From a virus, in the IMG/VR virus record IMGVR_UViG_3300013383_000248: DNA of 64,000 nt. The stretch is one strand, 5' to 3'. Of this stretch, positions 1-64,000 are shown piece by piece. The notes under the pieces are model-generated. The model was not told the origin of the DNA and made no database searches. It was given only the letters and a program-made list of their open reading frames with translations. The translations under genes and the position numbers were made by a program. The number at the start of each line of letters is the position of its first letter. Positions within the stretch are counted from its first letter, which is position 1.

Positions 1-36
1 TTAAATCACTTCCTTTAATTTTCAAATATAATATAT

Positions 37-192
37 TTACTTTTTCTTGGAGTCTTTAGTGGGATTATAAGCTCCTTGCTGTTTAGGATTTTCACCCCAC
101 ATAATTTGATAAACTGCTCTAGTAGCACTATTAGTTGTTCTACGTTTAGCTTTAGAAGCCATGGCTCCAAAAATACCACGAGGTTTACGCAT
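37..192 (-). CDS. small basic protein (51 aa, MRKPRGIFGAMASKAKRRTTNSATRAVYQIMWGENPKQQGAYNPTKDSKKK)
   Basis: ATG preceded by AAAGGAGATAATATT on minus strand; TAA stop; consensus promoter upstream. Differs from the tracked ORF 15..230 (other frame, no RBS). Confidence 0.4.
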   Translation of the reverse strand: MRKPRGIFGAMASKAKRRTTNSATRAVYQIMWGENPKQQGAYNPTKDSKKK

Positions 193-221
193 AATATTAT
201 CTCCTTTATTTTTATATAATT

Positions 222-250
222 ATTATACAAAAAAATTTTATAATTGTCAA
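222..250 (-). promoter_or_regulatory. sigma70-like promoter (minus strand TTGACA-17-TATAAT)
   Basis: Minus strand reads TTGACA (250..245), a 17-nt spacer, then TATAAT (227..222), just upstream of the RBS/ATG of the small basic gene. Confidence 0.5.
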
Positions 251-304
251 TTTTACATTTTATATAATTTTTTTACCAAATCGCATAAAAATTTTTGGCC
301 ATGG

Positions 305-333
305 TTGACTTTACAAATTTTTTGTGTTATAAT
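305..333 (+). promoter_or_regulatory. sigma70-like promoter TTGACT-17-TATAAT, divergent from the previous one
   Basis: TTGACT at 305-310, 17-nt spacer, TATAAT at 328-333. GGAGG at 348-352 and a TTG start at 362 follow. Confidence 0.5.
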
Positions 334-361
334 TTTTTTAGAAGGATTGGAGGTATTAATC

Positions 362-1426
362 TTGATAAAATTAGATTATACTCTTGAAACTCCTGAAGAA
401 CGAAATGAATTAGTAAAAAAAATTTTAGAGGAAAATCCAAATCCTAATGAAAAGTATTTAGAAATCCTCGCAGATTATCTAATTCTATGTATGGAGAAAC
501 AAGAAAAAAAAGAAAAGAAAATATTAACTGATAATAGATTAATGACAGTTAATAAGCGTGAAACTTCTTTTGAGGGTCTTGTTTCCTAGTTAGAGAATGG
601 TGAAGATGGTATATATAATTTAATTAATAGTGATAAAAATATGATATTTTAGCCAAAAGTTACAATTACAAAAAAAGATTTAGAAGAAATTCCTAGCTTA
701 AAACAATTAAAAGATGCTATTACAACTTGGGAAGCAAAAATGAAAGTAGTGAGTGGCAAAGATGCTTTCACTATAAAAAGAGCCTTGATAGAAATGCGCA
801 AAGACCAATATGTTATTAAAAATGCTTATCGAAAGCCAATAGTGCCGGTTAAACTTACTCGGTCTAAATATAAAATTAGACTAGACGAAGATGTAAAAGT
901 ATTTGATGATGATGGATATCCAATTCCAGAAGGCGTCTCATTAATGAATCCTGAAATTTGCTCTTGCATCTTATGTAATTATTCACGATTAAAAGAAGAT
1001 AGTTGGGACCGTTTTGAAGATGATACTTGGTATCTTATCTATGATTTTGAAAACACTTGCGATGAAGCTTTGGCTGAGTATCCTATGTTAATGCGTATTG
1101 TAGAATGTAAAATTGATGGATTGCAAAATGTAGAAATCCAAAAAGTATTACAAGAAGAATTTAATATTACTCATAGCTTAGAATATATATCTAGTTTATT
1201 CCGTAATAAAATTCCAAAGCTTATTGCCGATAAAGCTGTTGATAAATATTTAGAGTGGTATTATACAACACAAGAAAAAGGTAAGTATAAAAAATGCAGT
1301 CGATGCGGGCAAATAAAGTTAGCCCATAACAAGTATTTCTCTTTAAATAAAACAAGTAAAGATGGATTTTATAGTATTTGTAAAAAATGTCGAAATAGTT
1401 CTCGTAAAGAAAAAATGAAATCCTAA
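362..1426 (+). CDS. hypothetical protein (~354 aa) with C-terminal Cys4 zinc ribbon (CSRCG...CKKC); possible late regulator
   Basis: TTG start 8 nt after GGAGG. Joins tracked ORFs 161..589 and 740..1426 (same frame) across in-frame TAGs. No TAA/TGA until 1424-1426. Confidence 0.5.
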
Positions 1427-1444
1427 TGAAAGGAGAAATATTTA

Positions 1445-2659
1445 TTGTCTAGCGAAGGTAAACAATATTATTGTGAAAAATGTAATAAAACTATGGATGG
1501 AACTTAGTTTTATACATCAAATAATTTAGATAAGTATCCTAACGATGGCAAATTACCCCAATGCAAAAAATGTATTACAATGCATGTGGATAATTGGAAA
1601 CCAGATACTTATTTATGGATATTGCAAGAATGTGACGTTCCCTACATCCCTGATTAGTGGAATTAGTTAATGGGTAAATTTGCTAAGGATAGAGCGAAAG
1701 TTACTGGAATGACAATTTTAGGTCGCTATCTCTCAGCAATGAAATTAAATCAATGGAAAGATTATAGATGGAAAGATAGTCAATTCTTACAAGATTTACA
1801 AAATAAAAAAATAGAAGAGACAATGAAGCAATAGGGCTATGATGTATAGGATATAGCTACTGCTATTCAACGTGCTTCATTTGCTTTACCGACAGAAGAA
1901 CTTAAAGAGCCACCGGCCCCTACTCCTCCCTCTCTAGATTTTGGGAATCAACAAGAAGATTATTTTAAAGATAAATTGGATTTTGATATACCTGACCTAG
2001 GGGCAGAATTGACTGACGAAGATAAACGATATTTATATTTAAAATGGGGTAAAGGCTATAGTCCAGATGAATGGGTTCGCTTAGAGCAACTGTTTAATGA
2101 AATGATGTAGTCTTATGATATTTAGTCAGCAGGCCATATTGATACATTAAAACTTGCTTGCAAGACATCATTAAAATCTAATCAATTATTAGACATAGGT
2201 GATGTAGACGGCGCTCAAAAGATGATTAAAATGTATGATTCTTTAATGAAGTCTGGCAAATTCACAGCTGCCCAAAATAAAGAAGAATCTGGTGATTTCG
2301 TTGATTCTGTTGGTGAATTAATAGAAATGTGTGAGAAACAAGGTTATATTGAAAGATATTATATTGATTCTCCAAATGATAAAGTAGATTTTACAATTAA
2401 AGATATGCAGAAATATACCCGTACTTTAATTGAACGAGAAACTAATCTTGGCAATATGATTGATTAGGCATTAAAACAAAACGCTAAAGAAGATGAAGAA
2501 GCCAAAGAAAACGTCGAAGATACAATTGTTGATGATGTTGATATGTCTATTGAAGATATCGAAAAAACTTTGGAAGATAAAGATATTGAAGACTTTAGTG
2601 AATTTTTAGATAACGAGACAGAGTTAGATATAGATGCTTTCTCTGATAGAGAAGATTAA
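1445..2659 (+). CDS. hypothetical protein (~404 aa), N-terminal CxxC...CxxC zinc ribbon, acidic C-terminus; positional candidate for terminase small subunit
   Basis: TTG start after AAAGGAGAAAT. Frame is continuous with tracked ORF 2222..2467 through multiple TAGs. Ends TAA at 2657-2659, overlapping the terL ATG. Confidence 0.45.
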
Positions 2660-4410
2660 TGGCATTACAAGATTTACTTGACTTATCTACTAGTCGGAAA
2701 AAGATAGGTCTTTCTGAAGAACGTATTAATGCTGTAATGCCTATTATTCGTAAATATACTGCCTTTTGGCGTGAATATCCAGATTTATTTGTAGATTTTT
2801 TAGTGCGAGGAACGCGTACAGAGCCAAAAGAGGGAGAATTTAGATTCTTCTTTTATTAGCGTGTGTTCCTACGATGTGTAATGCGTTATCAATATGTTTA
2901 CGCAGTTTTCCCTCGTGCTTATTCTAAATCATTCTTATCAGTTATGGCTTTAATGGTTAGATGTATTCTTTATCCTGGAGTTCACTTATTTGTTACTTCT
3001 GGTGGTAAGGAATAGGGTGCTAGTATTTTGCATGATAAAGTTAATGAACTTTGTGATTTAATACCTAGCTTCAGGCGTGAAATTGACTGGGGCCGTGGTA
3101 AGAGCCAAGAGAGTAAAGATAAAGTACGCTATGTATTTAAAAATGGCTCTGTTCTTGATAACTTAGCTGCTAGAGAAAGCACTCGTGGTCAGCGTCGTCA
3201 TGGTGGCTTGATGGAAGAATGTGTAGGTATTGATGATTAGATTTTGCGTGAAGTCATTATACCAGTTATGGCAATTCCTCGTAGAGCTAAAGATGGTACA
3301 ACCCATGAAGAAGAAGCAGTTAATAAATCTCAGATTTATATCACTACTGCTGGTTATAAGAATACTTATCCTTATGATAGACTAATTGGTTTATTGGTTC
3401 GTATGATTACTTAGCCTGATAGATGTATGGTATTAGGCGGGACTTGGCGAACTCCTGTAGCTGTTGGCTTACAATAGAAAACATTCATTACTGACCAAAA
3501 GAATGAAGGAACTTATAATGAAGCTTCTTTTGAGCGTGAATATGAATCTATTTGGTCTGGTACTGTTGAAGATGCGTTCTTTAATGCGGAAATATTTAAT
3601 AGAAATAGAATATTGAATTAGCCTGAATATGAGGCTTCTGGCCGTTCAAGTAAATTATCTTATTATATATTAAGTGTTGACGTAGGCCGTAAAGGATGCG
3701 ATACTGTTGTTTGTGTATTTAAAGTAACGCCGTAGCCGCATGGTGAACCAATTAAGAGTTTAGTTAATATTTATACTATGAATGATACTCATTTTGAAGA
3801 TTAGGCTATTAAGCTTAAAAAATTATATTATAAATATAAAGCTCGTAGAATTGTAATAGATGCTAATGGTTTGGGCGTTGGCTTAGTAGATTTTATGGTT
3901 AAGCCTTAGATCAATCCTGAAACTTCTGAAGTAATTCCTGATTTTGGAGTTTATGGTGGAACTTAGGATGATGCGGTTTAGGAATATAAAAAATATAAAA
4001 CCAATAGTACAGAATTAGACGTTTTATATTTGATGAAAGCTAATGCACCAATTAATACAGAAGCACACAGTATTACTTAGTCAGTATTAAATTCTGGCAA
4101 GATTAAATTTTTAATTGATGAACGAACTGCTAAATAGAAATTATTAACTACTAAAGTAGGTTAGAATATGACTACTGAAGCTCGTTCTGATTATTTAAGA
4201 CCTTTTAGTTTAACCACTTCATTGCGTGAAGAGATTATGAATTTGCGTGAAGAGAATGAAGGTTTAAATATTATTTTAAAACAAGCTAATAAAAGTATTA
4301 AAAAAGATAAATTCTCTGCATTAGAATATGGTTTATATTATATAAAAAAAGTAGAAGAAGATAAAAAGAAGAAAAAATTCCGGGCTGCTGATTGGATGTT
4401 TATGAATTAA
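2659..4410 (+). CDS. terL: terminase large subunit (~583 aa)
   Basis: Tracked ORFs 2659..2859, 3028..3240 and 4168..4410 are in one frame. Hand translation through ~12 in-frame TAGs is continuous, with an ATPase region (YAVFPRAYSKSF, RRHGGLMEECVGIDD) and an RNaseH-like nuclease region (ILSVDVGRKGCDTVVCVF, IVIDANGLGVGLVD). Confidence 0.85.
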
Positions 4411-4419
4411 GCCGGGCAA

Positions 4420-4463
4420 CTCTTATTATTCTTTTAAATTAATTTTTAAAAGAATAATAAGAG
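4420..4463. repeat. 44-bp perfect palindrome (19-bp arms, 6-nt loop TTAATT); possible terminator or protein-binding site
   Basis: CTCTTATTATTCTTTTAAA-TTAATT-TTTAAAAGAATAATAAGAG read directly. Lies between terL and the nuclease-like gene. Confidence 0.6.
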
Positions 4464-4499
4464 GAATTTATTTGTAGATAAAGAAAGGAGACTTAATAT

Positions 4500-4856
4500 A
4501 TGGATGCCAGTCGTGCGGAAATTAAGATTAGAGAAATCTTAGAAGAAGCCGGCCTGAATTTTAAAATGGAATATATTTTCCCAGATTTAAAAACACATAA
4601 TGGTCGTCCTTTGCGTTTTGATTTTGTTATATTTGATGATGATAATAATATTGATTTTTTAATTGAATATCAAGGTAAACAACATTATGAAGCCAGTAAT
4701 AAATTTGGTGGTAAACGTGGTTTATACCAGTAGCAATATAATGATAATCAAAAACGTAGATTCTGTGCTTTACACGATTTACATTTAATAGAAATTCCTT
4801 ATACAGAAGAAAATTTAATTTCTTACGATTATATAATGCGAAAGGCTGGATATTAA
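4500..4856 (+). CDS. PD-(D/E)XK (restriction-endonuclease-fold) nuclease-like protein, ~118 aa; candidate homing endonuclease
   Basis: D..D...EYQGKQHY motif block (FDFVIFDDDNNIDFLIEYQGKQHY). One in-frame TAG. Position between terminase and portal is a typical homing-endonuclease insertion spot. Confidence 0.5.
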
Positions 4857-4873
4857 TTGAAAGAAGGTGAAGT

Positions 4874-6568
4874 ATGGAATTAGAAAAAGAAGAATTAACC
4901 AGAAATGAATAGATACATAAAAAAGGTTTTGATATAACTGGAGGAACACGAGAGTATTCTGCGGTTGGTCCTAGTGAATATAAAAAGATTAAAGTTGGCG
5001 TTAAGACATTAGATGATGCAGTTTTAAATCTTGGTTCATTCAGATGGGATACATATGGTCGTCGTAATGAAAAATATAGCCGTGAGCGCATTTATACTAA
5101 ACCTATGGTTATGGATGCTTTGATTCGTAATGATATTCCAGAGCTGCGAAGAATATCACGCTTCTTTTTTAGAGTAAGTGGTATTTATCAAAGAGTATGT
5201 AATTACTTTGCAAATATGTATCGTTATGATTGGGCTATTGCTATTTAGTCTAATAATACTGATGGCTCAACCGTCAAAGATATTAATGAGACAAAGGCAG
5301 TAAAAGATTTCTGGCGAATTTTAAATTATTTAGATAATTCTTATATTAAGAAGATTTGCGGCGATATGGCTCTTGAAGTTATTAAATGTGGAGCTTATTA
5401 CGCTTATATCGTTCCATCTAGCACTGGATTAGTTTTATAGCAACTTCCTATTGACTATTGCCGTTCTAGATATTCAGTAGGTAATTTGCCTGCTATTGAA
5501 TTTGATATGAGATATTTTGATACTTTTGTAGATACTAATTATCGTAATAGAGTATTAAAATTATTCCCTGATGAATTTACAGTAGGTTATCGTCTTTATA
5601 GGGCCGGTAAACTTTTGCCTGATGTAGCTGGTGATAATAGCGGTAGCTGGTATTTATTAGACCCGCAGAGTACTATTAAATTTGCTTTAAACGGCACTAA
5701 TGATATTCCATTATTTGTAAATGCTATTCCAGCGATTTTAGATTTGGATGCCGCACAAGATTTAGACCGTCGCAAGCAAATGCAAAAATTATTAAAGATT
5801 TTAGTTTAGAAATTACCGCTTGACAAAAATGGTGATTTAATCTTTGATATTGATGAAGCTCGCGATATACATAATAATGCTGTTGAAATGCTTCGTAGAG
5901 CAGTGGGTGTTGATGTATTAACTACTTTTGCAGATGTAGAAGCAATTGATACATCTGATAAGAACACTTCTACAACCACTGATGAATTAGAGCGTGTTGA
6001 GCGAACTGTGTATAATGCTTTTGGTGTTTCACGCAATTTGTTTAATACGGATGGTAATATTGCATTAGAAAAATCTATTTTAGATGATGAATCTACTATG
6101 CGTAATTTAATTTTGCAATTCAACATATTTTTTGATAGAATATTATCAGTCCTAAATGTTTAGAAAAAATATAATTATAAGTTCTATATGTTAGAAACTA
6201 CACAATATAATTATAAAGATTTGTCTAAGATGTATAAAGAGCAAACTTAGATTGGTTTCTCTAAAATGCTACCTTAGATTGCTCTTGGACAATCACAGAG
6301 TTTTATTCTTAATACAGCTCATTTTGAAAATGAAGTTCTACATTTAAGTGAAGTTATGATACCGCCTCTTATGAGTTCTACTCTGAACGGTGAAGATATT
6401 TTGGGTAAAAAAGATTAGAATAGTTCTAGCACTTCTCAAAATAAAACAAGTGGAAATTCTACCACTACTACTGTGAAAACGGAAACTAAAGAGAGCGGCC
6501 GGCCAGAAAAAGCTAACGACGAAAAGAGCGAAAAAACAATTGCTAATCGTCAAGCGGCTGGTAAATAA
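4874..6568 (+). CDS. portal protein (~564 aa)
   Basis: Continuous frame through tracked ORFs 5486..5809 and 5888..6163 and many TAGs. Size, gene order after terL and acidic/Ser-Thr-rich C-terminus fit a portal. Confidence 0.75.
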
Positions 6569-6580
6569 GGAGGATTTATA

Positions 6581-8143
6581 GTGAGACATACAAGTGTTAA
6601 GTTAGATACTCCTGTTGAGTTTATTAATATCACTAAAATCAATCCTTTAATTTCTAAATGTTAGATTAAAGTTTGTTATGTTGGTGATAAACCAAATCGC
6701 AATAGAAGTGTTATAACAAAAGAAGTTGCTAAAGATTTAGCGTAGAGTTTGCCGGGTAGTCCTATTGTTGGCTACTTTAATGAAGCCAATGGGGATTATG
6801 AAGAACATAATCGTGTAATTGATATTTCTAATGGCAAATTTGATATAAAAGATACTACTGTTCCTTACGGTTTTGTAGATTTAGGAGCGAAAGTATGGTT
6901 TTAGAAATTTTTAGATGATGGAAAAAACGAGCATGAATATTTAATGACTGAAGGCTATATCTGGACAGATATTTATCCAGAAAGCAAACGTATTATTGAA
7001 AAAGGTAATAATCAATCTATGGAATTAGATGATGAAAAAATTAATGCGTATTGGTCGAAAGATAAGAATGGAATGCCCGAATTTTTTATTATAAATGAAG
7101 CGATAATTAAGAAACTTTGTATTCTTGGAGAAGATTGTGAACCTTGCTTTGAAGGAGCTAATATTACTGCACCTACAATGCATTTCTCATTTAGTGATAA
7201 ATTTAATGAGCAATTATTCTCTATGATGAAAGATTTAAAAGAATTATTAGAAGGTAAAGGAGGAACAAAAGTGTTCACAAGATACAATGTGGAGATTGGT
7301 GATTCCATTTGGACTTCTCTTTATTCTTACATTAAGGGCTTCGGTGCTGGTAATGCAGTGATTGAAGAAGTTTGCGAAGACAATGGTAATTTATTTGCTG
7401 TTGTTAAGGAAGATGACAAGTTCGTTCGTTTAGATTTTTCTATGGAAAATGATACTTTCACTCCTGGCGAAGTTTCTGAATTAACTGATTATTCTGTTTC
7501 TGAGAACCCTCAATTCGATTCTGAAAAAGTCGCAGAATTTGCGAAAAAAAAGGACGAAAAAGATAAAGACAATAAAGAGAATAATGATAATAATAAGGAA
7601 GATTCTTCTGACGATAAATCAAAAGATGACGAAAAGAAGGATACTTCTGAAGATAAACCTGCTGATACTTCTGACAAAGAAGAGAAGCCAGCTAAGGATG
7701 ATGAAGAAGAAAAGAAGAAAAAGAAAGCTAAGTATTCTTTAGAAGACGTAGTTGAATATGGTTTATTAAAAGATGAGTATGCAGCTCTTGAAACTAAGTA
7801 TAATGAATTAGTTGAAAAGCAATCGCAACTTGAACAAGAACTTGCTTCTTTAACCCAGTTTAAGACTGAGGCTGAAAGAGAAAAGAAGCAAGAGATGATT
7901 AATAGTTTCTATATGTTATCTGATGATGATAAGAAAGATGTTGTTGCCAATATTGATACTTATTCATTAGATGATATTGAAGCAAAGCTTTCTATTATTT
8001 GTGTTCGCAATAAGGTCAATTTCGATACTAATGTAAATAAAGAAAATGACCCACTTACATATAATATTAATAATGATGTAAATGAAGATAGCATTCCTGC
8101 TTGGATTAAGGCAGTATAGGATGTTGCGAAAACTATGGAATAA
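6581..8143 (+). CDS. scaffold-like protein (~520 aa), possibly a prohead protease-scaffold fusion; acidic/Lys low-complexity plus coiled coil
   Basis: GTG start after AAGGAGG. Contains tracked ORF 6944..8119. The KDEK/acidic stretch 7540-7740 and a coiled-coil segment are typical of scaffolding proteins. Confidence 0.5.
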
Positions 8144-8167
8144 TAAATTTTTAAGGAGGAAAACCTA

Positions 8168-8944
8168 ATGCTTTTAAAAGATATGCTTAAAGACCTAAGC
8201 GGCGTATCTGCTGTTAAGGGCGGTTACGTTGAATATGGCTATGGTCAGGTTGAGCCTAATCATTTAAGTGCTCAGCGCACTGGTCAGATTTATGCTCAGT
8301 TACCTGCTAATAAAAATATCCAGCTTCTTGAAAATGGCCAGTTTGTTAAGTATGACTATGCTGCTGGTGAGCTTGGTGAAGTTGATTTCACTGGCAAGGG
8401 CGAATGGATGTTAGTTTATAATGAGATTAAACTTTATCGTGAGGAACAGGCCGATTGCGAATTTGCTATGCGCAAGGACGATTATTAGGCTCGTTACTAC
8501 AGCCCATATGATGGCAAGCAGGAGATTGGCACGCGTCAGGCTCGTTACCTAAACGGCAAGGATGCTGCTGGTAATACTTCTATAACTATTAAGGATAGCC
8601 AGGGTGTAGAACATACTTATGAATATGATGATGTTACTGCTGGTCCTGATATCCGTGAACTCTTCTATGAAGAAGATCCTTTACATTTCGATGGTCCTTA
8701 TGAGGCCCGCAGAATGCCTGCTGGCACTAATATGGTTCCTCGTGTTTTAAAGACCAATGTTGGTGATATTTTTACGACTAATACTATTGCTGAAGCTACT
8801 CTTGTAGTTGGCGATATTTTAAGCCCTCGTGCTACTGACGGTATGCTTTCTAAGTCTGGTGATGGCTCTATCCAGTGGTAGGTTGTTAAGGTTTATGAAA
8901 TGCCTGACCATCAGAAGGGCGTTAAGATTATGCGAATCGCGTAA
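8168..8944 (+). CDS. head structural protein (~258 aa; decoration or minor capsid)
   Basis: AAGGAGG RBS. Higher GC and only 2 TAGs, suggesting a highly expressed gene. Immediately upstream of the putative major capsid gene. Confidence 0.4.
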
Positions 8945-8961
8945 GAAAGGAGAGAAGAAAA

Positions 8962-10098
8962 ATGTTAGATAGAAAAAATCTTGTTCAATTAATGAAGACT
9001 GTCGCTAAGGCTGATCCTTCTACTCCTACTGCTTACAGCTTTAATGGCGAAAGCCTTTCTTATGATGCTCTTAATGAAACTCTCCGCAGAGAATTAAATG
9101 AACTTGCTGGAACTTATTCTCTATATCGTGATAATAAGAACCTTATTTTCTCAATGATTGAGGAAACTATTGATGAAGTTCTTCCTAAGAAAGTTGAAGA
9201 GCAATATAATCAGTTTGCTGAAGTTAAGACTTTCAAGCAGGGTGACAAGCCCATCTTCCGCAGAAAGTTCAGCAATAATACTCGTGCAAAGCAATTCATT
9301 ACCCGTGTCGGCCTAGCTGGTATCTATGAAGTATTCAAGCTTGGTAAGACCGAAGAAAGCTTTGAAGTCCGTACAAGTGCTATCGGCGGAGCTGCTCAAA
9401 TTGGCTTTGAAGAGTTCCTTGATGGCCGTGTCGATTTTGGTACTGTCACCCAGATCGTTATGGAAGGTATGGACGAGCTTATCTATAAAGAGATTGCTGG
9501 TGCATTAAAGGCCTCTATTAACCAGTTACCTCCTGCTAATCGTGTTGTTGGTAATGGTTTTGATGAACCCGCGTTTGATAAGTTACTTATGATTGCTTCT
9601 GCTTATGGTACTCCTACTATTTATTGCACATATGAATTTGCTGTTCGTATGATTCCGAAGGATGCTTGGCGTTATACTGAAGCTATGAAGAATGAGCTTT
9701 GGAACACTGGCCGTCTTGCTTCTTATAAGGGTTATAAAGTTGTTATCCTTGAGCAGGGATTCGAAGATGCTACCAATGAAAAGAAGGTCATTGACCCAGG
9801 TTATGCTTGGATTATTCCTACTGGTGCTGATAGTAAGCCTGTAAAGGTTGCTATGGAAGGCAATACCATTGTTGATGAATATACTAATTATGACCGCAGC
9901 CGTGAAATTTAGGTTTATAAGAAGGTTGGCGTTATTGCTATGTTAGCTAATAACATCTGCTGCTACTGTGATACCGAACTTCTTGGCGATATGAAGACTT
10001 GGCATCTTGATGGTGTAACTGGTAAGGTCCGTGATTATGCTGGCCAGATTACTGGTTCTCACGACACTATTGATGGCGGAAATGAAGATACTCCGTAA
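8962..10098 (+). CDS. putative major capsid protein (~378 aa)
   Basis: GAAAGGAGAG RBS. A single in-frame TAG, high GC, followed by a strong terminator. Size and position fit an HK97-fold major capsid protein. Confidence 0.55.
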
Positions 10099-53626: not shown

Positions 53627-56169
53627 AGGCTAAAAGCATATCCTAACTGCGGTGCTACTGCTGTTTCCCAAAAATATTCTGCATCACTTTTATTATTAAA
53701 ACGACTAAATACCTGTTCCTTTAATTGAGGAATCTTAGCCATTTGTTTTTTAGCAACAACTTTACGTGCTGAGTTAGCTTCACCTAATGTAAAATGAGCT
53801 ATATCCATAAGGATTTCCATCATTTGTTCTTGTAAAGGGCAACAACCATAATATTTATCACAGTGTTTATGAAATTTATTAATAAGTTCTTGAGGCAAAT
53901 GATGTTGTTTCATTTCTTGATCAAAGGCTTGGATACCTTGGTGTTGAATTCGATAAAATCTATCTTGTTGTGATTCTTTACCTTTTTCAGACATAAGACG
54001 CATCATAGCATTAGCCGCAGTCATTTCCATAGGGTCTTGCGGTTTTAGTTTTTTGGCAATAGCTAATCCTACACCAGTAGAAAACTGGAAACAGTCTAAT
54101 ACATCGCCTGCTGCAAGATGGTCCCAAATATTTTGGTCTTTTGTATCTATTACTTCTGGATGAATATATTGATTATAAAATTCTCTTAAAGATAAATCAG
54201 GAATTTCTTTTGCCTTTAATAGTAATTCATAACAAGTAATAATCTTGTCAGAAGCTTCAGTCACAAGGAAATCATATTTAGTATCTCCAGCTGCTTCCGC
54301 CTGATGCAAATCCCAGCAAGTAATTAAATTACCACTAGGCGTTCTCATAAATGCTGCTGTATCATAAGGATCATCCCCATAAAGAATAACGCCAGAAGCG
54401 TGAGAAGAACGTTTATTAACAATACCGCCAATATAAATAATTATATCAAGAAGTCCTGGATATTCATTTACTTTATTAATAAATGTTTTAACAGGCTTTC
54501 TATCTTTGGCTTCATTACCATAAATAACATCGTCAATTTCCCATAAGAATCCACGTTCTTGCGGGATAAGAGAAGACATATACTGTGCTTCATCTACGTC
54601 AATACCATTTGGATATTCTTCTGACCTATAACCACGACAAGCAGTGAGAATAGCAGATTTAGTAGTTTCAGTGCCAAAGGTAGCAACCTGAATTAATCCT
54701 AATTCTCCACGTTCTTTGCGAATAGCTTCAAAAATTGCAGGACGTTTTGAAGGAGCTAAGTCAATATCAATATCAGGTAATTCAGCACGTTCTTTGTTTA
54801 AAAAACGCCAATAAGGGAGACCCCATCTTATAGGATCAAGCTGAGTGATACCTAATAAATAGTTAGATAAAAAACCAGTGGCCGAACCACGCCCTGGACC
54901 TACTATAGAGCCGCAATTCCAAAACAAATCAATATAATGTTTAAAAGTATTAAAGTAAGCAAAAAGGCAATCATCTAATTTTTCACCAATATCTTTTATA
55001 ATATCAGCTTCAATTTCAAGACGATTTAAATATATATCAAGTTTATCTTCAGAGATACTTTTATTATACATCTTTTCCAATAAAGACATATAACATTCAT
55101 TAACCCAATAACGTTCTTGAGGATTATCACTCATTAATAAACTACATAAAATAGGATATTGTTCTTCACGTTCACCATACCATCCAGCCAATGATTGAGG
55201 ATAATCTGTTACTTCTACTTTTGGAATTATTTGTTTTCTTTCAAGAGAGAAATCTTCAATTTTATTTTGAATTTCAAGAGTATTATTTAAAATTTCTTTA
55301 GCTATTTCTTCTGGCTGTTCTTCTATGTCTAAATATATAAAACAAGGTTCAATTAATTTAAAAACTTCATCATAAGTCATTAAATGAGCGAACTCATAGA
55401 ATTTATCAACTTCTCGTTCACCGTCTTTTGAATTAAGATAAGCTTTATGAATTGGTCTATCTTCTTTAGTTAGATAATGACTGTCTGTAGCAACTTCTAC
55501 TTTAATTCCATATTTACGGCCAATTTTATAAATCATATGATTTACAAGTTTTTGGTCTGCCGCTGTTGATGGTGCAATCTCTAAATAAAAATCTTCATCA
55601 AATAAATCTTGGCAAAAAGTAAGAAAAGTATCTATTTGTTTTAATGTTTGATATAATTCATATTTATTTTCTTGTTCTTGGTATTCTACTGCTTTTAATA
55701 AACAAGTTCCTAACTCTCCACCAATACAAGCAGTAGTAGCGATTAGATGTCCTTTATATTTTTCTACTATTGGCTTTAATTCACTCTTTAAAAGTGGAAC
55801 TCGTTCCATTTTTCTATCAACATATAAATTTTGCCAAGCAATTGAACTTAATTCTTTTAATGCTCGATAGCCTATAGCATCTTTAGCAATTAAAATAAAA
55901 TGATAATATTTTTGTCCTGTACTTCTATCATCAGTTAAATAAATTTCATTACCTAATGCTATTTTAAAATCTGGATATTTTTCTTTAATTTTTTTAGCAT
56001 ATTGATTTACTGTCATATGTGCAGAAAGACTTTCGTGGTCTGTAATAGCGATTCCCGAAAGTCCTAATTCAATAGCCTTATCAATTAAAGTTTCTGGTTT
56101 ATTTATGCAATCAAGTAAACGGAGGTTCGAATAATCAGTATGATTATGGCAACCAAAATAAGTACTCAA
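53627..56169 (-). CDS. dnaE: DNA polymerase III alpha subunit (DnaE), exon 1 (N-terminal ~847 aa; PHP, palm, fingers)
   Basis: TTG start 7 nt after GGAGG. N-terminal PHP motif HNHTDYS. The tracked ORF 53587..56169 runs 13 codons into the intron. Confidence 0.85.
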
Positions 56170-56236
56170 TTCCCTACCTCCTTAATTCTATTATTTTCTG
56201 TAAATATTATATCATATAATTCTATCAAAATCAATT

Positions 56237-56428
56237 TTAAAAATCATCTATATCATTAGCGATTTTATTTATCATAGCAGCCAATTCAATTAAATTCTAC
56301 CTATACGTTGATAAATTATTTTTTAATTTTTGGTTTTCACTGAATAAATAAGAAATCTGATTTTCATTCTATTGCTACTGTTTTTCTAATTCATTACCTA
56401 GCTAATTAAGTAAATTTTGTATTTCCAT
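56237..56428 (-). CDS. small coiled-coil Gln-rich protein (~63 aa)
   Basis: ATG overlaps the upstream stop (TAATGG); 9 in-frame TAGs (QQQQ run); TAA at 56237-56239. Confidence 0.3.
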
Positions 56429-57027
56429 TATCCTATAATCTCCAAATGATAATCATTCTTTTCATTTAAACAATCCAAAAGAGTATAAAACAGACTATGA
56501 TAATAAGGCGGAACCCACTCTGGTGATAAACAAATAAAATACTTATCATAAGAATCAGTAAATTTAAATTCTTTAAATGGTATTTTATTATATTTAAAAT
56601 TTACTTCAAAATTTGGGTCACAAGAATTATCATTATGAACCCAAGTGTAGTCTTTCAACTGCCCTTGGTCGTGAAAATATTTAACCCAGTCCGCACAATT
56701 ACATTCTTCTAATTTTTTATCTTTATCTTTAATATCATAAAAAATATCGTGATGATGGTCTATATTAGTAATATTTAAGTTGGTATCATTTTTTAAATAA
56801 TCTTGAATAAATGAATGACTATAACTAATAAAAATAGAAGAAGTTTTATCTATAGTTCGTAATAAATATCTAAGTATTTTAGAATAAATATTTAAATCAG
56901 CAGGTGTAGTGGTAAGATTGGGTAAACTCTTTAATAAATCATCCCAATGATTTGCTGGCACCATGTTATTATATAAATTAATACTTGGTGCCATAATAAT
57001 GTCAAAATCTACGCTTAATACATTCAT
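56428..57027 (-). CDS. hypothetical protein (199 aa)
   Basis: Tracked ORF; ATG start confirmed. Confidence 0.5.
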   Translation of the reverse strand: MNVLSVDFDIIMAPSINLYNNMVPANHWDDLLKSLPNLTTTPADLNIYSKILRYLLRTIDKTSSIFISYSHSFIQDYLKNDTNLNITNIDHHHDIFYDIKDKDKKLEECNCADWVKYFHDQGQLKDYTWVHNDNSCDPNFEVNFKYNKIPFKEFKFTDSYDKYFICLSPEWVPPYYHSLFYTLLDCLNEKNDYHLEIIG

Positions 57028-57094
57028 ATATATATTATTTCCTTATAACAACTAATTTTTTACTGGCTCTAGTAATACCAGTATATAAATATTT

Positions 57095-58153
57095 CTAATG
57101 GTCTAATTTATTAAAAGGATGTACTTCTTCAATTAATAATACCTTATCCCATTCACTGCCTTGTGCCTTCCAAACTGTTATAGCATAAGCATAAGCAAAG
57201 TAATAAGGAGCTTCTAAAGCATCAGAATTTCTAGCAAAACTATTCATTCTAAATTCTTGTTTTTTATCAAAAGCTTGCTCTCCTGTAAGTAAAGCATCAT
57301 AATCAATTGGAATAGATTCAAATCTTCCATTTCCAATATCCATACCAGTAAACATATATTGCAATTCTTTATTATAAATAAAGCTTGGATAATGATAAGG
57401 AACTATTTGATAATTAGTAATTGTCCCAATAGACCCATTAGTGAGTGGCCATAAACCATTAGTGGAGATAAAATCCCAATGATTGGTTAATCCTATGATT
57501 TTATCTCCTATTTCTGGTATAGGTCCTCGACCCTGTCTTTCTCGAACTTTATTATTTATTTCAATACGTTTCTTATTAGAGGCGCATAAAGTTTGGTCTG
57601 CCCATTCATACATTTCAGGAATAAGTTCATAAGGTCTTAGAATTTGAACTTGTTCTTTGGCTACTGGAAATTGCCCCAAGGGCTTACCTTCACGCACCCA
57701 CATAGATAAACGAATAATTTCACTATCTTGTGCTTGCCGCATAATTTCATCTAGAAAGATATGTGGTTTATCTAATACATGGTTATCTTCATTTTGATCT
57801 ACAGGAGGAAGCTGAAAAGGGTCACCACAGGCAATTACATATTTATGATGGGAAAGAAGTAAATCCCACATTGTTTTAGGCAGCATTGATATTTCATCTA
57901 CAATAATTACTTTATATGGGATAGGCCATCTTTTTTTTAAATAAAATGTGCCGTTAGGTCTCGGTTTAGCTTCATACAATAATTTATGTGCTGTAGTTGC
58001 ATTAGGGCATCCTTTTGTTTGAAGAACGGTTGCTGCTTTACCAGTATAAGCCACATAAGCTACATCAGTTTCAGGATTCAAATTTAATGATTGAACTATG
58101 AATTTTACTAATGTAGATTTGCCTGTGCCAGTTAAGCGTAGCCAGCAATACAA
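57095..58153 (-). CDS. RecD/Dda-like SF1 DNA helicase (>=352 aa)
   Basis: Walker A TGTGKST, Walker B VIIVDEISM, GDPFQLPPV, and C-terminal VWKAQGSEWD motifs. Start is unclear (TTG at 58153; no ATG, no SD). Confidence 0.8.
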   Translation of the reverse strand: MYCWLRLTGTGKSTLVKFIVQSLNLNPETDVAYVAYTGKAATVLQTKGCPNATTAHKLLYEAKPRPNGTFYLKKRWPIPYKVIIVDEISMLPKTMWDLLLSHHKYVIACGDPFQLPPVDQNEDNHVLDKPHIFLDEIMRQAQDSEIIRLSMWVREGKPLGQFPVAKEQVQILRPYELIPEMYEWADQTLCASNKKRIEINNKVRERQGRGPIPEIGDKIIGLTNHWDFISTNGLWPLTNGSIGTITNYQIVPYHYPSFIYNKELQYMFTGMDIGNGRFESIPIDYDALLTGEQAFDKKQEFRMNSFARNSDALEAPYYFAYAYAITVWKAQGSEWDKVLLIEEVHPFNKLDH

Positions 58154-58186
58154 GTATAAGATTCGTGGCTCTTGTATCTGGCTACG
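58137..58186 (-). promoter_or_regulatory. 16-bp interrupted stem-loop spanning the helicase translational start region
   Basis: CGTAGCCAG(CA)ATACAAG with a 16-nt loop, pairing to CTTGTAT/CTGGCTACG; read directly. Confidence 0.4.
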
Positions 58187-58213
58187 GCAATTTTCAATCC
58201 AGCATTTTGTTTA

Positions 58214-58639
58214 TCAGTTAGTGTCAAGCGGATTTACTTCTCCTTTCCATATAAATTTATCATTTTCAAAAACCACTTTCATTGGTTTTTCTTGAGCTGT
58301 GGGAATGATATAAACATAATCTTCAGTAAATGGCATTTTAAATCTAGTATCACCATTTTCATCAAAAATTTCTAAATCGTATTTTTGATTTGAACCTTCG
58401 GTTTCTGCATCTGTACTCGGTCGGAGCTAAGCCATTTTTTTATTACCCTTGCCGCCTCTAATTTCATAAATATCACAAGAAGTAGTTTTATTAAGCTCAG
58501 TGAGTTTAGCACTTAATTCTTTAATTGCTCTAGTAGCTTCTTCAGCAGAAATACCAAAACTACCCCAAGAAGCTATTTCTTTTACTAATTCATTAAATTC
58601 ATCTTCATTAAACAAAGTATTTGTAAGCTATTGTGGCAT
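58214..58639 (-). CDS. hypothetical protein (~141 aa), same frame as the helicase and separated from it by tandem TGA-TAA
   Basis: ATG near 58639, inside the C-terminus of the upstream gene. Reads through 2 TAGs. Ends ...GEVNPLDTN-TGA-TAA. Confidence 0.4.
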
Positions 58640-59333
58640 ATTGTTGTCTAACGTAATTTGATTGCGATAATCCTCTTTCATAACATTTCATAAAAGCTAA
58701 AGCAGCTTCTTGCTCGTTCTCCAATTCTAAAAATTTTTCAAAATTAAAATTATTTGAATAACAAAAACCAAACATATCAATTTGATATTTAATATCATCA
58801 CGAAGAAAATCCATTTGACCTTTTAAATCTGCTCCCCATACTCTATCAGTAAATACTTGATTCCATTGGCATAATCCATAAAATCCATTGCCATAAATGG
58901 TAGTTTGCAAATCTAATGTCCCACCGCCAACCTCAGCCATCATATTACCTAAAATACCAGCACATACATAATCATTCCAGCCAAGATTTTTCATATATTC
59001 CCAAATAAGAGTAGCATCTTTATATTCAAGTCCATCTAATTCTTCATCAACTTTATCTAATTGATTTTGATAGAATTTAATAATTTCATTATAAAAATGC
59101 CATTTACCTTTAAGATTCATAATTACATCACTATCATCAGTATAACCGATTAACCGAGCATTATTAGCATTATTATGAATTTCTTCTTTTTTTAAAGTAT
59201 ATTCATCAATTAAATTGATAAGTTCCCAATAATTATTAGTTTCTTTTAAGGGAGTATATTCAACAGTTATTGCATTAACATTAATAGTTAAAATTAAAAG
59301 GATACTAATAATTATAATAATTTTTGTTTTCAT
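58608..59333 (-). CDS. secreted lysozyme-like protein (241 aa; signal peptide; phage-tail-lysozyme-like domain)
   Basis: Tracked ORF. N-terminus MKTKIIIIISILLILTINVNA looks like a signal peptide. YVCAGILGNMMAEVGGG and GLCQWN resemble the AGIMGNxxxESG / GxxQW motifs of tail-lysozyme domains (recalled from memory). Confidence 0.5.
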   Translation of the reverse strand: MKTKIIIIISILLILTINVNAITVEYTPLKETNNYWELINLIDEYTLKKEEIHNNANNARLIGYTDDSDVIMNLKGKWHFYNEIIKFYQNQLDKVDEELDGLEYKDATLIWEYMKNLGWNDYVCAGILGNMMAEVGGGTLDLQTTIYGNGFYGLCQWNQVFTDRVWGADLKGQMDFLRDDIKYQIDMFGFCYSNNFNFEKFLELENEQEAALAFMKCYERGLSQSNYVRQQYATIAYKYFV

Positions 59334-59350
59334 ATTTTTCTCTCTATCTA

Positions 59351-61091
59351 TTAAAAATAATATTTTACATTTTTAGTAACATGATAATCAGTAATAAAAA
59401 TTTCTGGATTAGTTTTTCCTAAAAATTCATTTATTTTACAAATACCAATAATATCAACAATTATACAGCCTGTTTCACTATGTAAATAATTATATTCTTC
59501 TTGATTAACATTAAATTTAATTAAATCTAAATCATTTGGTAATTTAATTTTTAATGTTCCAGTAGTTTCTTTAGGATAATAAATTACATTATTATTAGTA
59601 AGTTTTAAATTTTTAATAACTATATATGGTTCTTTAAAATTCTATCCCCACAAAGGTTCAAACTCTGGTATTTCTAATATAGTATTTATATCAATATTAT
59701 TACTATCAAAAATATAATCAGCTAAATAAACTGGCTAACCATCATAACCATATAATTTACTATTTGTATCTCTTATGAATTTTCTTATATTATTATCAGC
59801 AATTTTCGCACCAAATGCTCCTTGATGACCTTCTGCAAATTCAAAATATCCAGTAGAATTAAGATAAGCTTTAAAATCTTTTATAGGCTCAAAAAATTCA
59901 TACCCACGACCAGATCCTTCCCAGTATTTAATTCCATTTTCAATTACTTCATTAAGTATAAGAGTCGGCTTCTAAAATCTATTAGCAAATTCATTTGCTA
60001 TTAATCCAGTTAAATTTTTATTTACTTCATATTTTTTATCCAACTAAACAACTAGAATTTTATCATTTAATAAACCTTGTTCTTCAATTAACTTTTCTAT
60101 TATTTCAACATTGGCATCACGGATTTTAGTCTATCGTGTTTTTACATTACCACTAACGCGACATGCCTGTTCTACAATAGTTTCAGCTTGTCCTCTGCAT
60201 CCTCTTTTGGTTGATGGAATTAAATCATAGGCAAGAAAATCTAACATACTCTAAAATACTACTTGTCGTTCATCAGTTTCTCCAACACGAGTAACTGCAT
60301 TAATGAGTGGAGCAATATAGAAAGCGACACCCATAGGAGTTAAAGTTTCTTTTAATTTAAATTTATTTTTTTCCATCATACCTTTAATATAAGGATTTTG
60401 AGGATTCTTTAATCCTTGATTAATAAAATATCGAGTTTCATAAGGCCTACTATCCATCATATCGCCGATTAATCCAAGAGCTACTAAATCTAAATATTTA
60501 TTTGAATAATTAGTATTAAGAATTTCATCAATAGCATTACAAAATTTATAAACAATAGCGACGCCAGATAATGCTTTATTAGGATAGTTATCTAATTGAT
60601 TATTAATTACACAAGCATAAGGAGAAATTTCATCTGCTTCATGATGATCTAAAATTAATATATCAATACCCTTATTATAAAGTGCTTTATGTTCTTTATA
60701 CTAATTACTTCCTGCATCAGGAATTATTACTAATTTAGTATCTTCTGGAATAGTATCTAAAATAATACCGTGAGTTTTCTAGATATGAACTCTATAATAT
60801 ACATTATTAGATACATAATAAGGGAATAAATCATATAAATAATTAATCAGCAATGCTGAAGATGTATAACCATCGCAATCAGCATCTACCTAAATAAAAA
60901 TTTTATCATTTTGTTTAATATGTTTTAATAATAATTTAATTCCCTATTCTATATTATTTAATAATTTATTGGGATATACATCAGATTGTGTGGGATTAAG
61001 AAAATGCTAAATATTCTCAGTCTTAATCCCACGATTATTCATTATTGTTTCTAATGGAGTTTTTTGTGTATCATTAATTAATTTATAATTC
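59351..61091 (-). CDS. recJ: RecJ-like DHH-family ssDNA exonuclease (~580 aa)
   Basis: Hand translation through ~12 TAGs: VDADCDGYTSSALL (DHH motif I), IPDAGSN, LDHHE (the DHH motif itself), GVAIVYKFC, LGLIGDMMD. AAGGAG RBS; TAA at 59351-59353. Confidence 0.85.
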
Positions 61092-61104
61092 ATATACTTA
61101 CTCC

Positions 61105-61473
61105 TTATATAATAATTCTTTCTTTATATAATTTAAGAAATAAATCTGGCCCTTCATCAGTTGGACTATCCTTATAATTAGTAAGCATATTCTTATCAAA
61201 AATAAAAGATATGTTAAAATAATTTCCATACTTAGCCTTTATTTTTAATAAGTTATTTTTTAAATGATAAAATTCTTCATCACCTATTTTTTGGAATTGT
61301 CTATCAAAAGCAATAATAATATCTTTCGCACCGACTTGCTCTAATAATTTCATTTGCTGAGCCGATACGCTGCTGCCGCAACAAGCTACCGTTATATCAT
61401 TTTCAAAACCAAAATAACTTTGATATTGTAAGGTTGACTTTTCCATATAATCCATTATTTCTAATGGTACTGA
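61105..61473 (-). CDS. dnaG: DnaG-type primase, exon 2 / C-terminal TOPRIM part (~122 aa; 5' boundary uncertain, 61455-61482)
   Basis: ...LEIMDYMEKSTLQYQSYFGFENDITVACCGSSVSAQQMKLLEQVGAKDIIIAFD... is TOPRIM-like. The frame is open upstream of the tracked ATG, through TAG codons. Confidence 0.7.
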   Translation of the reverse strand, partial: SVPLEIMDYMEKSTLQYQSYFGFENDITVACCGSSVSAQQMKLLEQVGAKDIIIAFDRQFQKIGDEEFYHLKNNLLKIKAKYGNYFNISFIFDKNMLTNYKDSPTDEGPDLFLKLYKERIII

Positions 61474-62455
61474 CTATATCTTCCAACTACTAATTATAGT
61501 TGCCACTGTTTCGAGATATGTACCAATAATATCTCTACTCCCTTTAACAGGATAGTCGATACAGGTTATCTATTTTTCCACATCTATTTTGCTCCTACTG
61601 AATGATTATTTCTTAGAGGATAATTATATCCATCAAGCCTATAAGATTGAGTTTTTCCATTTATTATATCTGAAATAGTGGAAGAAGAACAATTGAACAT
61701 TTTTGCTAATTCTTTTAAATTTTTATCATTTTTTAAAATTTCTTCATGAATTTTTTTACATTCTTCAGGAGAAAATTTTAATCCTTTAGTGCCTTTAGCT
61801 TTATTAGAACGAATAGGATATTTAATTCCAGACTAAGGTCTTCGTGCTCCAATATTTATATTGTATATGTGAGTTAGTGAAAATCCAGTTTTTTCACTTA
61901 TTTCTTTAAAAGAATATTTTTCATTCTTTAAATACTCAATAACTTCTAATATTTTTTTATCTTCATACATTGGTTTAACAGGATTTTTTCCACCAGTTGA
62001 TTGATTATAACCATTAAAATATGTATCATAATATTTTATCCAATATTTTTCTCTATTGTCTAATTCTTCAAGTGGAACATTTTCTTCTAAAACTATTAAT
62101 TGATACTCTTCTTCTCCATATTTTCTTATCCCTCGACTTAAAGGATAATCATACTCTGCTTTATTCATATTAAATGGGTCATATTGAATATGCTATTTAT
62201 GTCTATTTTTTAAGTTATTAGTTTGACCTACATAAACAATTTTACCATTACTTTTTTTCTTATAAGCATAAATTACATTCATAAAATCAACTCCTTTTCT
62301 CACTATTATATGAAAAATGAAGTTAGATGTTTAAATAGATTTTCCCACGGAACCACCTTGAATTTAAAAAAATTTTTAGGCTCCTCCGTTAGCTTGTTAA
62401 AAATAACAAACCCCATTGGTAAATGGTAAAGTGGACTAGGGCGAAACTTTCTTTT
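61474..62455 (-). mobile_element. probable group I intron (~980 nt) in the primase gene carrying a GIY-YIG homing endonuclease gene (3' splice site uncertain)
   Basis: Exon 1 ends GAGGGU (62456) and pairs with downstream GCCCU (62442-62438) as P1 with U.G. The upstream reading frame decays after IIFEG (the TOPRIM EG). The ATAGTCAG motif near the 3' end is shared with the dnaE intron. The C-terminal piece has no RBS. Confidence 0.5.
61833..62282 (-). CDS. GIY-YIG homing endonuclease (~149 aa)
   Basis: MNVIYAYKKKSNGKIVYVGQTNNLKNRHK-Q-HIQYD..., where the RxxxH Gln is a TAG. AAAGGAG RBS. The tracked ORF 61833..62168 is its C-terminus. Confidence 0.75.
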
Positions 62456-63220
62456 ACCCTCAAATATTATTGCTTTTCCTATCCTATTTATATTTGCTTT
62501 ACTATTATTTAAATTATATAAATTCATACCAAGAGGATGAGAATAAAGAATCTTATTAATTTTTAATGGTCTATATTTGCCATACAATAGAGCTTCCTCT
62601 TTTCCTAACACTCTTCCTCTTAGTCCTATAAAATTTCCATCTATGTCAAAATGAGGAATTGTAATAGCATCGCCGCCAGGGTAATAACCAATTATTGCTT
62701 GGTCTATCGCCTCTTGGCTTATTCCTTCTTTTAGCCACGGAGTTAATTTTACACAATAATTAAATCTACTTAAAATTTTACTATCATAAGTTTTTAATTC
62801 AACTTTAGAATTTAAATTTTCTTCTATGTTATTCTTATCATAATTAGCTAAAAATTTCCAATCTTCTAAGCCTAAATCTTCAGCATCGTCTTCCACTGAA
62901 CCGGCAATACCAAAATAATTAGCTATCCAACGAACTGCATCATTTAGGTCATACTCTTTATTAGATTGGATATGAGCTACTTTAATTACTAATTCAAATA
63001 TATCAAATATATCATCACAGCCGGTGTAGCATTTAAATAATTGACTATTTGAATAGTAATAAAGTTTCTTACTTCCTGCTCCTGGTTCATTATGACAGAT
63101 AGTTTCAGAAAGGATACCGAATTCACTATATTCAGGATTACCGCCCCAAATATTTAGTAATTCAAAAATATTGTCTAAAGTTAAATTATTTTTTATCTCA
63201 GCTTTATCATAGTTAATCAT
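62456..63220 (-). CDS. dnaG: DnaG-type primase, exon 1 (zinc-binding and RNA-polymerase domains, ~255 aa)
   Basis: CHC2 zinc finger CHNEPGAGSKKLYYYSNSQLFKCYTGC. RNA-polymerase-domain motifs GYYPGGDAITIPHF, GLRGRVLG, KYRPLKINKILYSHPLGMNLYNL. Ends ...NRIGKAIIFEG, aligning with E. coli ...PNRLLVVEG. Confidence 0.75.
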
Positions 63221-63238
63221 TATTAACTTAATAAATTA

Positions 63239-63421
63239 TTAGAATGTAATTACATTAATACAAGTGCCTTTAATACCAAATTCTTCATTAACTACTTTAA
63301 TAAGGTATTCCTTTGGATGTTTCTTTGCAAATTCACCCTTAGCAGTCTTTAGATACATCGCTGCCATTTCCTTCGGCATCTTATATTCAATAGTTCCATT
63401 CATAATATCTTTGTTAAACAT
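63239..63421 (-). CDS. hypothetical small protein (60 aa)
   Basis: Tracked ORF. Confidence 0.35.
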   Translation of the reverse strand: MFNKDIMNGTIEYKMPKEMAAMYLKTAKGEFAKKHPKEYLIKVVNEEFGIKGTCINVITF

Positions 63422-63437
63422 AATTTAATCTCCTTAT

Positions 63438-64000
63438 TTAAAAAGCGCTATCTTCAGCAATTCTAATTTTTACATTTTCCATATCTACTAATTCATAACT
63501 CCAATCAGTGCAAAAGATTGGAATAATACGACAGCAACCTAAATCAGCCTTACACCATAGATAAATTCCTTTATATTTACCTCGACGATTTTTATATACT
63601 GATAATTTTATTGTTGGACGTTCAAAAGTATTTGTTTCAAGTATTTTCTCTAACGATTGATAATCATTATCACGAGCTTGAAGAAGTAGCATACCTACGT
63701 CAATTTTATCTGCAATGGCTTTTGAACCACGCAGAACATTTTGGTCTGGCGTTTCACTATATTGATAATCAGCATTTAACTAAGTAGCAGACATAATAAA
63801 AATACCATATTGATTACAAATATCTTTTAATCTAGTAGAAAGCATAAAAAGGATATTATCTTCTCTTAATTTTACGCCGCCGCTTCGTTTACTAATTTCT
63901 TCAAGAATTTTCATACTTGTATGAATATAATCGTGAAATATGTATTTAACCCCGTGGTCTCGAATATTTTTCTTAATAACATTTTCTACATCCCGTAAAG
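63438..64000 (-). CDS. dnaB: DnaB-like replicative helicase, C-terminal part (gene runs past the window end)
   Basis: ...GIFIMSATQLNADYQYSETPDQNVLRGSKAIADKIDVGMLLLQARDND...VYKNRRGKYKG... matches the SF4 H3/H4 and C-terminal motifs. One in-frame TAG near 63780. Confidence 0.8.

Follow-up and report, generated by a model that had tools for sequence, protein, structure and literature searches.

TAG as a glutamine codon in a large tailed phage, most likely of Firmicutes, with a putative suppressor-tRNA gate on late genes

Here we describe the reading of the codon TAG in a 64,000-nucleotide stretch of viral DNA, IMG/VR record IMGVR_UViG_3300013383_000248 (hereafter the window, meaning the whole stretch that was analysed). 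It is very probable that the window belongs to a large tailed phage, with a genome of probably ~190 kb and most likely a host among the Firmicutes, which reads TAG as glutamine (Gln; genetic code 15), terminates its genes with TAA or TGA and would use a suppressor tRNA to time the expression of its late genes. Sequence comparisons support TAG as a sense codon synonymous with CAA and CAG, for which Gln is by far the best assignment. Several traits that define a code 15 phage are present: genes are interrupted by TAG only, Gln is found at the TAG positions of relatives, no gene ends in TAG and TAG is biased towards late genes.

The window is almost entirely open once TAG is read as sense. We compared how much of the 64 kb (30.1% GC) is covered by open reading frames (ORFs) of at least 100 amino acids (aa) under different codes. 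With TAG as a stop (table 11), such ORFs cover 49.5% of the window (n = 61, mean 185 aa, longest 865 aa), whereas with TAG as sense (table 15) they cover 96.2% (n = 72, mean 322 aa, longest 3,242 codons). The same statistics led us to reject reassignment of the other two stop codons. Reading TGA as sense gives 53% coverage and leaves the longest ORF unchanged, and reading TAA as sense produces numerous short ORFs that overlap one another, the longest of 867, as expected because the sequence is AT-rich (30% GC). Calling genes bounded by TAA or TGA only yielded 53 genes with 20,051 codons, in which TAG occurs in frame 352 times compared with 557 CAA/CAG. At least one TAG is present in 41 of the 53 genes (77%), and 12 have none. 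The terminators are TAA in 46 genes, TGA in seven and TAG in none, with a handful of genes carrying TAG in their final 1–7 codons, where it could still act as a terminator. These data bear out what a first-pass annotation had proposed from the letters of the window, namely that long genes are broken by TAG and never by TAA or TGA, that genes end in TAA or TGA, and that standard-code gene callers would shatter the genome.

Recognizable proteins run through in-frame TAGs on both strands:

2659..4410, + strand: large terminase TerL, 583 aa, 14 in-frame TAGs
4874..6568, + strand: portal protein (phrog_2739, 2.3e-75), 8 in-frame TAGs
17520..27209, + strand: tape measure, 3,229 aa, 115 in-frame TAGs
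46886..47374, − strand: NrdG activase, TAGs at 47303-47305 and 47273-47275
47715..49841, − strand: NrdD anaerobic ribonucleotide reductase, 708 aa in one frame, TAGs at 49746-49748 and 48612-48614
49878..50348, − strand: free-standing GIY-YIG endonuclease gene, 5 TAGs including YIG[TAG]T
59351..61093, − strand: RecJ-like DHH exonuclease, 580 aa, 11 in-frame TAGs
61566..62282, − strand: GIY-YIG endonuclease gene in a ~1-kb insertion of the primase gene, 3 TAGs including RHK[TAG]H

NrdD covers the entire Pfam NRDD profile (1.9e-173), and the tape measure holds a PhageMin_Tail domain (aa 194–401) and an NlpC/P60 domain (aa 2977–3069) in a single frame across its 115 TAGs. The gene identifications of the first-pass annotation were correct, and its view that the reassembled proteins are full-length homologues agrees with, for example, the whole-profile match of NrdD and the domains at both ends of the tape measure. 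Its single NrdD frame of ~708 aa with two TAGs was confirmed by the positions and the full-profile match, and both TAGs of NrdG (FWV[TAG]GC...GC[TAG]NPE) and both GIY-YIG motifs (KVYIG[TAG]T, TAG at 50286-50288; RHK[TAG]H, TAG at 62193-62195) were found where it had placed them. Interruption of TerL, RecJ and the tape measure by TAG likewise held, but the numbers needed correction, slightly for TerL (14 rather than ~12) and RecJ (11 rather than ~12), and from ~150 to 115 for the tape measure.

The continuity of these proteins bears on the possibility that the TAGs are real stops, whether in pseudogenes, through assembly or sequencing artefacts or at a few programmed read-through sites. Beyond the shattering of genes under table 11, nothing speaks for this explanation. 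All interruptions are TAG (n = 352) and none is TAA or TGA, dozens of independent contigs have TAG, CAA or CAG at the same positions, and domains flank many TAGs in one frame. The ORF statistics and the codon alignments with relatives refute real stops, to which we give practically no credence.

Which amino acid TAG encodes was read from alignments with relatives. Those for the structural genes came from a TerL search of IMG/VR (80 loci, 61–98% identity). TAG was masked as X before alignment, so the alignment could not favour Gln; the substitution table for the likelihood test was built from the same alignments, and identical proteins were removed in the structural set. The codons that face the TAGs of the window's TerL in the 80 relatives are mostly CAA (310), TAG (262) and CAG (101), followed by GAA (67) and GAT (50). 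Across 15 genes of the structural block, relatives have Gln 1000 times at TAG positions and TAG itself 662 times, compared with 256 Glu, 130 Lys and 108 Ser. The likelihood test on these 15 genes gave −4254 for Gln and −6595 for Glu, the next best, with all other residues lower. For nine replication-block genes, aligned to 80 primase-anchored loci, the values were −1746 for Gln and −2106 for Glu. In the reverse direction, TAG in relatives faces CAA or CAG in the structural genes of the window 480 times.

Relatives that keep the standard code gave a similar result. In L070 and L032, whose ORFs under table 11 cover 97% and 96%, Gln is present at 43 of 92 TAG positions (47%) compared with 69 of 144 genuine CAA/CAG positions (48%), and in the TerL of L032 it is found at 12 of the 14 TAG positions of the window. 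Paralogues within the window agree: where the GIY-YIG gene at 49878-50348 has YIG[TAG]T, the aligned motifs of the other two GIY-YIG genes are YIGQT and YVGQT, with Gln encoded by ordinary codons.

Several observations weigh against Gln. The second TAG of NrdD faces Leu in three solved NrdD structures, which are distant homologues. PFL-activase has Gln at the first TAG of NrdG and His at the second, and the TAGs of RecJ face Glu, Lys, His/Tyr, Asn, Gly and others in solved homologues. The solved homologues of NrdD, NrdG and RecJ are of little help because they are too distant. An earlier claim that TAG sits at 'invariant Gln' positions is accordingly upheld for Gln as the best assignment but not for invariance, given the Leu and His in NrdD and NrdG homologues. 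The same distant residues (Leu, His or Glu at some TAG positions) would favour a sense codon for another amino acid, be it Glu, Lys, Tyr, Trp, Leu, Ser or pyrrolysine, as would the fact that the identity elements of the CUA tRNA described below are not readable; its label 'tRNA-Pyl' is the one that ARAGORN gives to any CUA tRNA. However, Gln leads Glu by ~2,300 log units in the structural genes and by ~360 in the replication genes, CAA and CAG are the most frequent partner codons, and conservation at TAG positions equals that at true Gln codons. We regard another amino acid as most improbable and TAG as a Gln codon.

TAG is not evenly distributed over the two strands of the window, whose genes are arranged in two blocks:

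113..44198, + strand: late packaging, head and tail block, 29 genes, 310 TAG vs 361 CAA/CAG, 2 of 29 genes without TAG
44241..64000, − strand: replication and nucleotide-metabolism block, 24 genes, 42 TAG vs 196 CAA/CAG, 9 of 24 genes without TAG

One of the 24 − strand genes, at 42115-42357, sits outside the range given for its block. TAG accounts for 46% of Gln codons (310/671) in + strand genes compared with 18% (42/238) in − strand genes (Fisher's test, odds ratio 4.0, p = 1e-15). TAG is absent from guanylate kinase, the C-terminal part of DnaE, the primase parts and several small genes. That TAG encodes Gln 'throughout' the phage, as had been proposed, is right as to the code but not as to uniformity of use, as 12 genes lack TAG and the replication block is poor in it. 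The pattern extends past the right end of the window in close relatives, where DnaB, ligase, gyrase B and A and RNase H are almost TAG-free (zero TAGs in both gyrase genes, ligase and RNase H); in the same region, TAG occurs twice in a CHAP lysin gene and five times in a holin-like gene.

On the other side, a region of the relative L167 (4000-20000) that lies directly left of window position 1 forms a 16-kb island of 37–46% GC, compared with ~30% elsewhere. The island is densely packed with small opposite-strand genes, among them AbrB-like, HAD-like and nucleoside deoxyribosyltransferase-like genes, and has almost no in-frame TAG. It is probably an early, host-like region. In more distant relatives, a tRNA-Asn or tRNA-Lys is located in the island region (L046 1500-1574, L054 3535-3610).

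The putative decoder of TAG is a tRNA with a CUA anticodon. Neither ARAGORN nor Rfam at gathering score detected a tRNA in the 64-kb window, and no other RNA family was found in it either. We walked outward in 10-kb steps through the closest IMG/VR contigs. Three of them (3300029858_000001, 3300045988_158846 and 3300045988_166471) have a TerL 97–98% identical in amino acids to that of the window, and two (3300045988_152007 and 3300045988_164919) are linked to it through the primase and neighbouring genes at 93–100% identity. The overlapping contigs suggest a genome length of about 188–190 kb. The first four steps from the window contained no CUA tRNA, and in the fifth we encountered a small tRNA array, which by contig coordinates lies ~37 kb to the right of the window, on the strand of the replication genes. 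Here, a canonical CUA tRNA (L205 1129-1203; 'tRNA-Pyl(cta)' in ARAGORN, 49.1 bits with the Rfam tRNA model) is followed by tRNA-Leu(UAA), a RAGATH-33 RNA and tRNA-Gly. ARAGORN reported a CUA anticodon in L205, L208, L209 and L211, whose tRNAs reach 49 bits with the Rfam model. As a positive control, the annotated Sup-CTA of phage Phass-1 was reported by ARAGORN in the same manner.

An exact 30-mer from the conserved spacer adjoining the tRNA occurs in five contigs, all of them close relatives, with a CUA tRNA alongside in every case. The slot is occupied by the canonical tRNA in three of the five relatives (L205 1129-1203, L208 7284-7358 and L211 1276-1350) and by an unrelated sequence in the other two (L206/L210 and L204/L212; located at L206 1236-1307, which equals L210 3464-3535, and at L212 11050-11121). 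This non-canonical tRNA folds into a cloverleaf with the anticodon loop CUCUAAA, a D loop AGCAGCAA that lacks GG and a T loop GGCAGCA that lacks TTC. It was missed by ARAGORN and scores 38.9 bits with the Rfam tRNA model (L206, L210 and L212), for which the gathering score is 29. Canonical and non-canonical CUA tRNAs share an unpaired U1, G73 and an encoded CCA. The suppressor-tRNA step is, on this comparative evidence, well supported for the lineage, and we infer it for the window's own genome. A search for GGQ-type release-factor motifs over all fetched DNA gave no match, a weak negative as it was a motif search only.

As two unrelated tRNAs occupy one slot, the suppressor tRNA of the lineage could be a swappable cassette, with a canonical or an unrelated tRNA(CUA) at the same site, a tentative idea that we consider rather unlikely. 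A GIY-YIG ORF (L206 ~472-1230) lies directly upstream of the non-canonical CUA tRNA. The array has other structured RNAs and an intron. A full-length ROOL RNA (320 bits; L208 8251-8844 on the − strand, L205 1-171) and a RAGATH-33 RNA (~139 bits; L205 1402-1514, L206 2263-2375), both large structured RNAs of unknown function, adjoin the suppressor tRNA. The tRNA-Leu(UAA) is intact in L205 (1303-1388), and its anticodon loop is interrupted in L206 (1421-2249) and L204 (467-1290) by a ~740-nt group I intron (Rfam Intron_gpI, 64 bits, L206 1974-2176).

The genetic code also differs among members of the TerL family. L067, L051 and L053 (TerL 63–66% identity) are 98–99% open with TGA as sense, consistent with code 4, and their in-frame TGAs face Trp of the window in 13 of 19 cases. 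Codes 11, 15 and 4 are all present at 61–73% identity to the window's TerL, and this coexistence in one family fits the published view of rapid code change in phages. It is also relevant to whether the host itself reads TAG as Gln, in which case the phage would simply match its host, as do the code-25 phages of Absconditabacteria and the code-4 phages of mycoplasmas, and no switch would occur during infection. The share of window genes with TAG, 77%, exceeds the per-clade means of 26–71% published for phages of standard-code hosts, which leaves room for a recoded host. Against this, code 11 or code 4 is found among close relatives of the same TerL family, the relatives encode a CUA tRNA of their own, and TAG is strongly depleted in the replication genes, with 12 genes in the window and the gyrase, ligase and 16-kb small-gene block of the relatives lacking it. 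No bacterium is known to read TAG as Gln. A host that shares the code therefore has only a slight probability, and a standard-code host with a phage-encoded switch is the reading we prefer.

Overall, these data suggest a model where recoding acts as a timing gate on late gene expression. The host would read the standard code, as inferred from the relatives and a published model (10.1101/2021.08.26.457843). TAG-poor early and replication genes, together with the tRNA(CUA), would be expressed first by the unmodified host machinery. The phage-encoded CUA suppressor tRNA would then decode TAG, and full-length forms of the TAG-rich late proteins would appear only after it has accumulated. Three observations weigh against a simple form of this model. 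The window contains no tRNA, the suppressor tRNA being seen in relatives only. Sequence similarity gave no clear pointer to the synthetase that would charge the CUA tRNAs: when compared with the phage's tRNA-Gln(UUG), the Phass-1 tRNAs and two further tRNA-Gln sequences, they showed no clear preference for the tRNA-Gln of the phage. And TAG does occur in the replication block, with 11 TAGs in RecJ, two in NrdD and three and five in GIY-YIG genes, so the early/late gate would be leaky or graded.

A regulator may add to the gate:

161..1426, + strand: sigma-factor-like gene (phrog_5767), just upstream of the terminase, 2 in-frame TAGs

Both of its TAGs fall within the portion alignable to relatives. 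We speculate that the code switch might, through this late sigma-like factor, extend the gate from late translation to late transcription.

Recoding of TAG to Gln has been predicted in many clades of gut phages and tied to suppressor tRNAs and to late and lysis genes (10.1101/2021.08.26.457843), has metaproteomic confirmation in phages of the crAss-like type (Peters et al. 2022, PMC9523058) and is also on record for the Phass-1 group (PMC10607447). In the code 15 clades of Borges et al. (Sapphire, Agate, Jade, Lak and crAss-like), TAG as Gln was inferred from terminase alignments, as it is here. The lineage of the window shares with them a low GC content, the loss of TAG as a stop, a concentration of recoding in structural and lysis genes with variable recoding of replication genes, and, in the close relatives of the window, a suppressor tRNA(CUA). 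Single clades that mix codes 11, 15 and 4 were seen by Borges et al. and recur in the window's TerL family, and the size range of their large clades includes the ~190 kb of the relatives here. In contrast to those clades, a non-canonical CUA tRNA replaces the canonical one in two relatives here, and the motif search found no release-factor homologue. The exact guanylate kinase of the window was found in the Logan assembly of SRR1747033, and the run number is near that of the Sapphire representative, SRR1747018_scaffold_13, which, like the genome size, is only a lead to the clade.

Phass-1 (OQ749652; proposed Phassvirus, NCBI 'Caudoviricetes code 15 clade') is likewise a large gut-virome phage whose TerL, tape measure and portal genes contain TAG. 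Its Sup-CTA tRNA genes lie in an array on the replication-gene strand, as in the relatives here, and no dedicated aminoacyl-tRNA synthetase was reported for it. However, Phass-1 has 136 kb and 33–36 tRNAs compared with ~190 kb and about seven tRNAs seen in the relatives here, and 28% of its ORFs are recoded compared with 77% of the window's genes. We rejected membership in Phassvirus, whose species have 82–86% nucleotide identity to each other (PMC10607447): the window's TerL is 41.6% identical to that of Phass-1, with no nucleotide match, and is nearer to the TerLs of presumably standard-code Firmicute siphoviruses (44–47%). Megablast with 45 kb of window sequence as query gave no match among 50,697 GenBank phage records (INPHARED). 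The crAss-like code 15 phages show the same reassignment but are an unrelated lineage (Crassvirales, with Bacteroidetes hosts), and the proteomic proof, the experimental precedent for the reassignment, belongs to them (PMC9523058); for the window, incorporation of Gln at TAG is predicted from sequence comparison. The nearest annotated TerLs are those of large Firmicute siphoviruses of similar genome size, Geobacillus virus E3 (47%) and Enterococcus phages VRE9_4, H1 and EF1 (44%). Judged by the TerL matches alone, those of E3, VRE9_4 and H1 are unbroken, and the sole break in the EF1/EF5 match is an HNH endonuclease gene that is annotated as such, with no sign of recoding in any of them.

The remaining features of the replication block include genes interrupted by GIY-YIG segments:

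50408..57027, − strand: TAG-free run with guanylate kinase, DnaE parts, a GIY-YIG gene and a 199-aa gene
50982-52406, − strand: DnaE C-terminal part, no TAG
52586-53476, − strand: GIY-YIG gene between the DnaE parts, within the TAG-free run
53581-56016, − strand: DnaE N-terminal part, its sole TAG being the penultimate codon, beyond the insertion junction

This block also encodes a UvrD-like helicase, a primase in two parts and a DnaB fragment. GIY-YIG segments of ~0.5–1.2 kb are located in the primase gene (61444-62451), in DnaE (52434-53631) and between gmk and nrdD (49866-50378), and all three are missing from the same sites in close relatives; the ~510-bp segment with the GIY-YIG gene at 49878..50348 is missing in L086 and L088. 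Primase and DnaE, both essential, are split in frame by these segments. An Rfam search for a group I intron at the DnaE and primase insertions gave no match, and an ATG is found exactly at the 3′ junction of the primase insertion. DnaE of relatives has other insertions, at different sites. The DnaE and primase arrangements may represent introns or split genes.

In the late block, which also encodes virion structural proteins, the region downstream of the tape measure is occupied by large genes:

27255..40818, + strand: five large tail/baseplate-region genes of 1072, 1139, 1148, 233 and 883 aa, with 20, 16, 21, 7 and 18 TAGs, respectively

None of these five had a Pfam match. TAG makes up only 9–20% of Gln codons in four other genes of the block (8962-10098, 6944-8143, 8168-8944 and 14097-15194), compared with 40–66% in most tail genes. 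Of these four genes, one has a match to a virion structural family, and the capsid gene was not recognized among them. If they are highly expressed head genes, their low TAG content would suggest selection against TAG at the highest expression. Outside the window, relatives carry unusual accessory genes (L198 587-3082, 6467-7873 and 8268-9578; L169 14860-16269). Proteins of 831 aa and 468 aa may be vault-like and flotillin/band-7-like, a guess from their sequences, and others are a radical-SAM protein with five TAGs and a 469-aa protein whose N terminus resembles a tRNA-binding/RNA-ligase domain.

The code 15 phenomenon is already well documented, and the window adds one large Firmicute-type lineage to it. 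The window displays the expected early/late asymmetry clearly and leaves current understanding unchanged. Gene calling in the window and its source genome needs translation table 15, as table 11 fragments TerL, portal, tape measure, NrdD and RecJ and leaves ORFs of at least 100 aa covering about half of the sequence. The non-canonical tRNA has potentially wider meaning. If it is functional, homing endonucleases would be moving determinants of the genetic code between phages. As ~60% of TAG-recoded genomes were suppressor-less in Borges et al. (10.1101/2021.08.26.457843), many such recoded phages might then carry non-canonical tRNAs of this kind.

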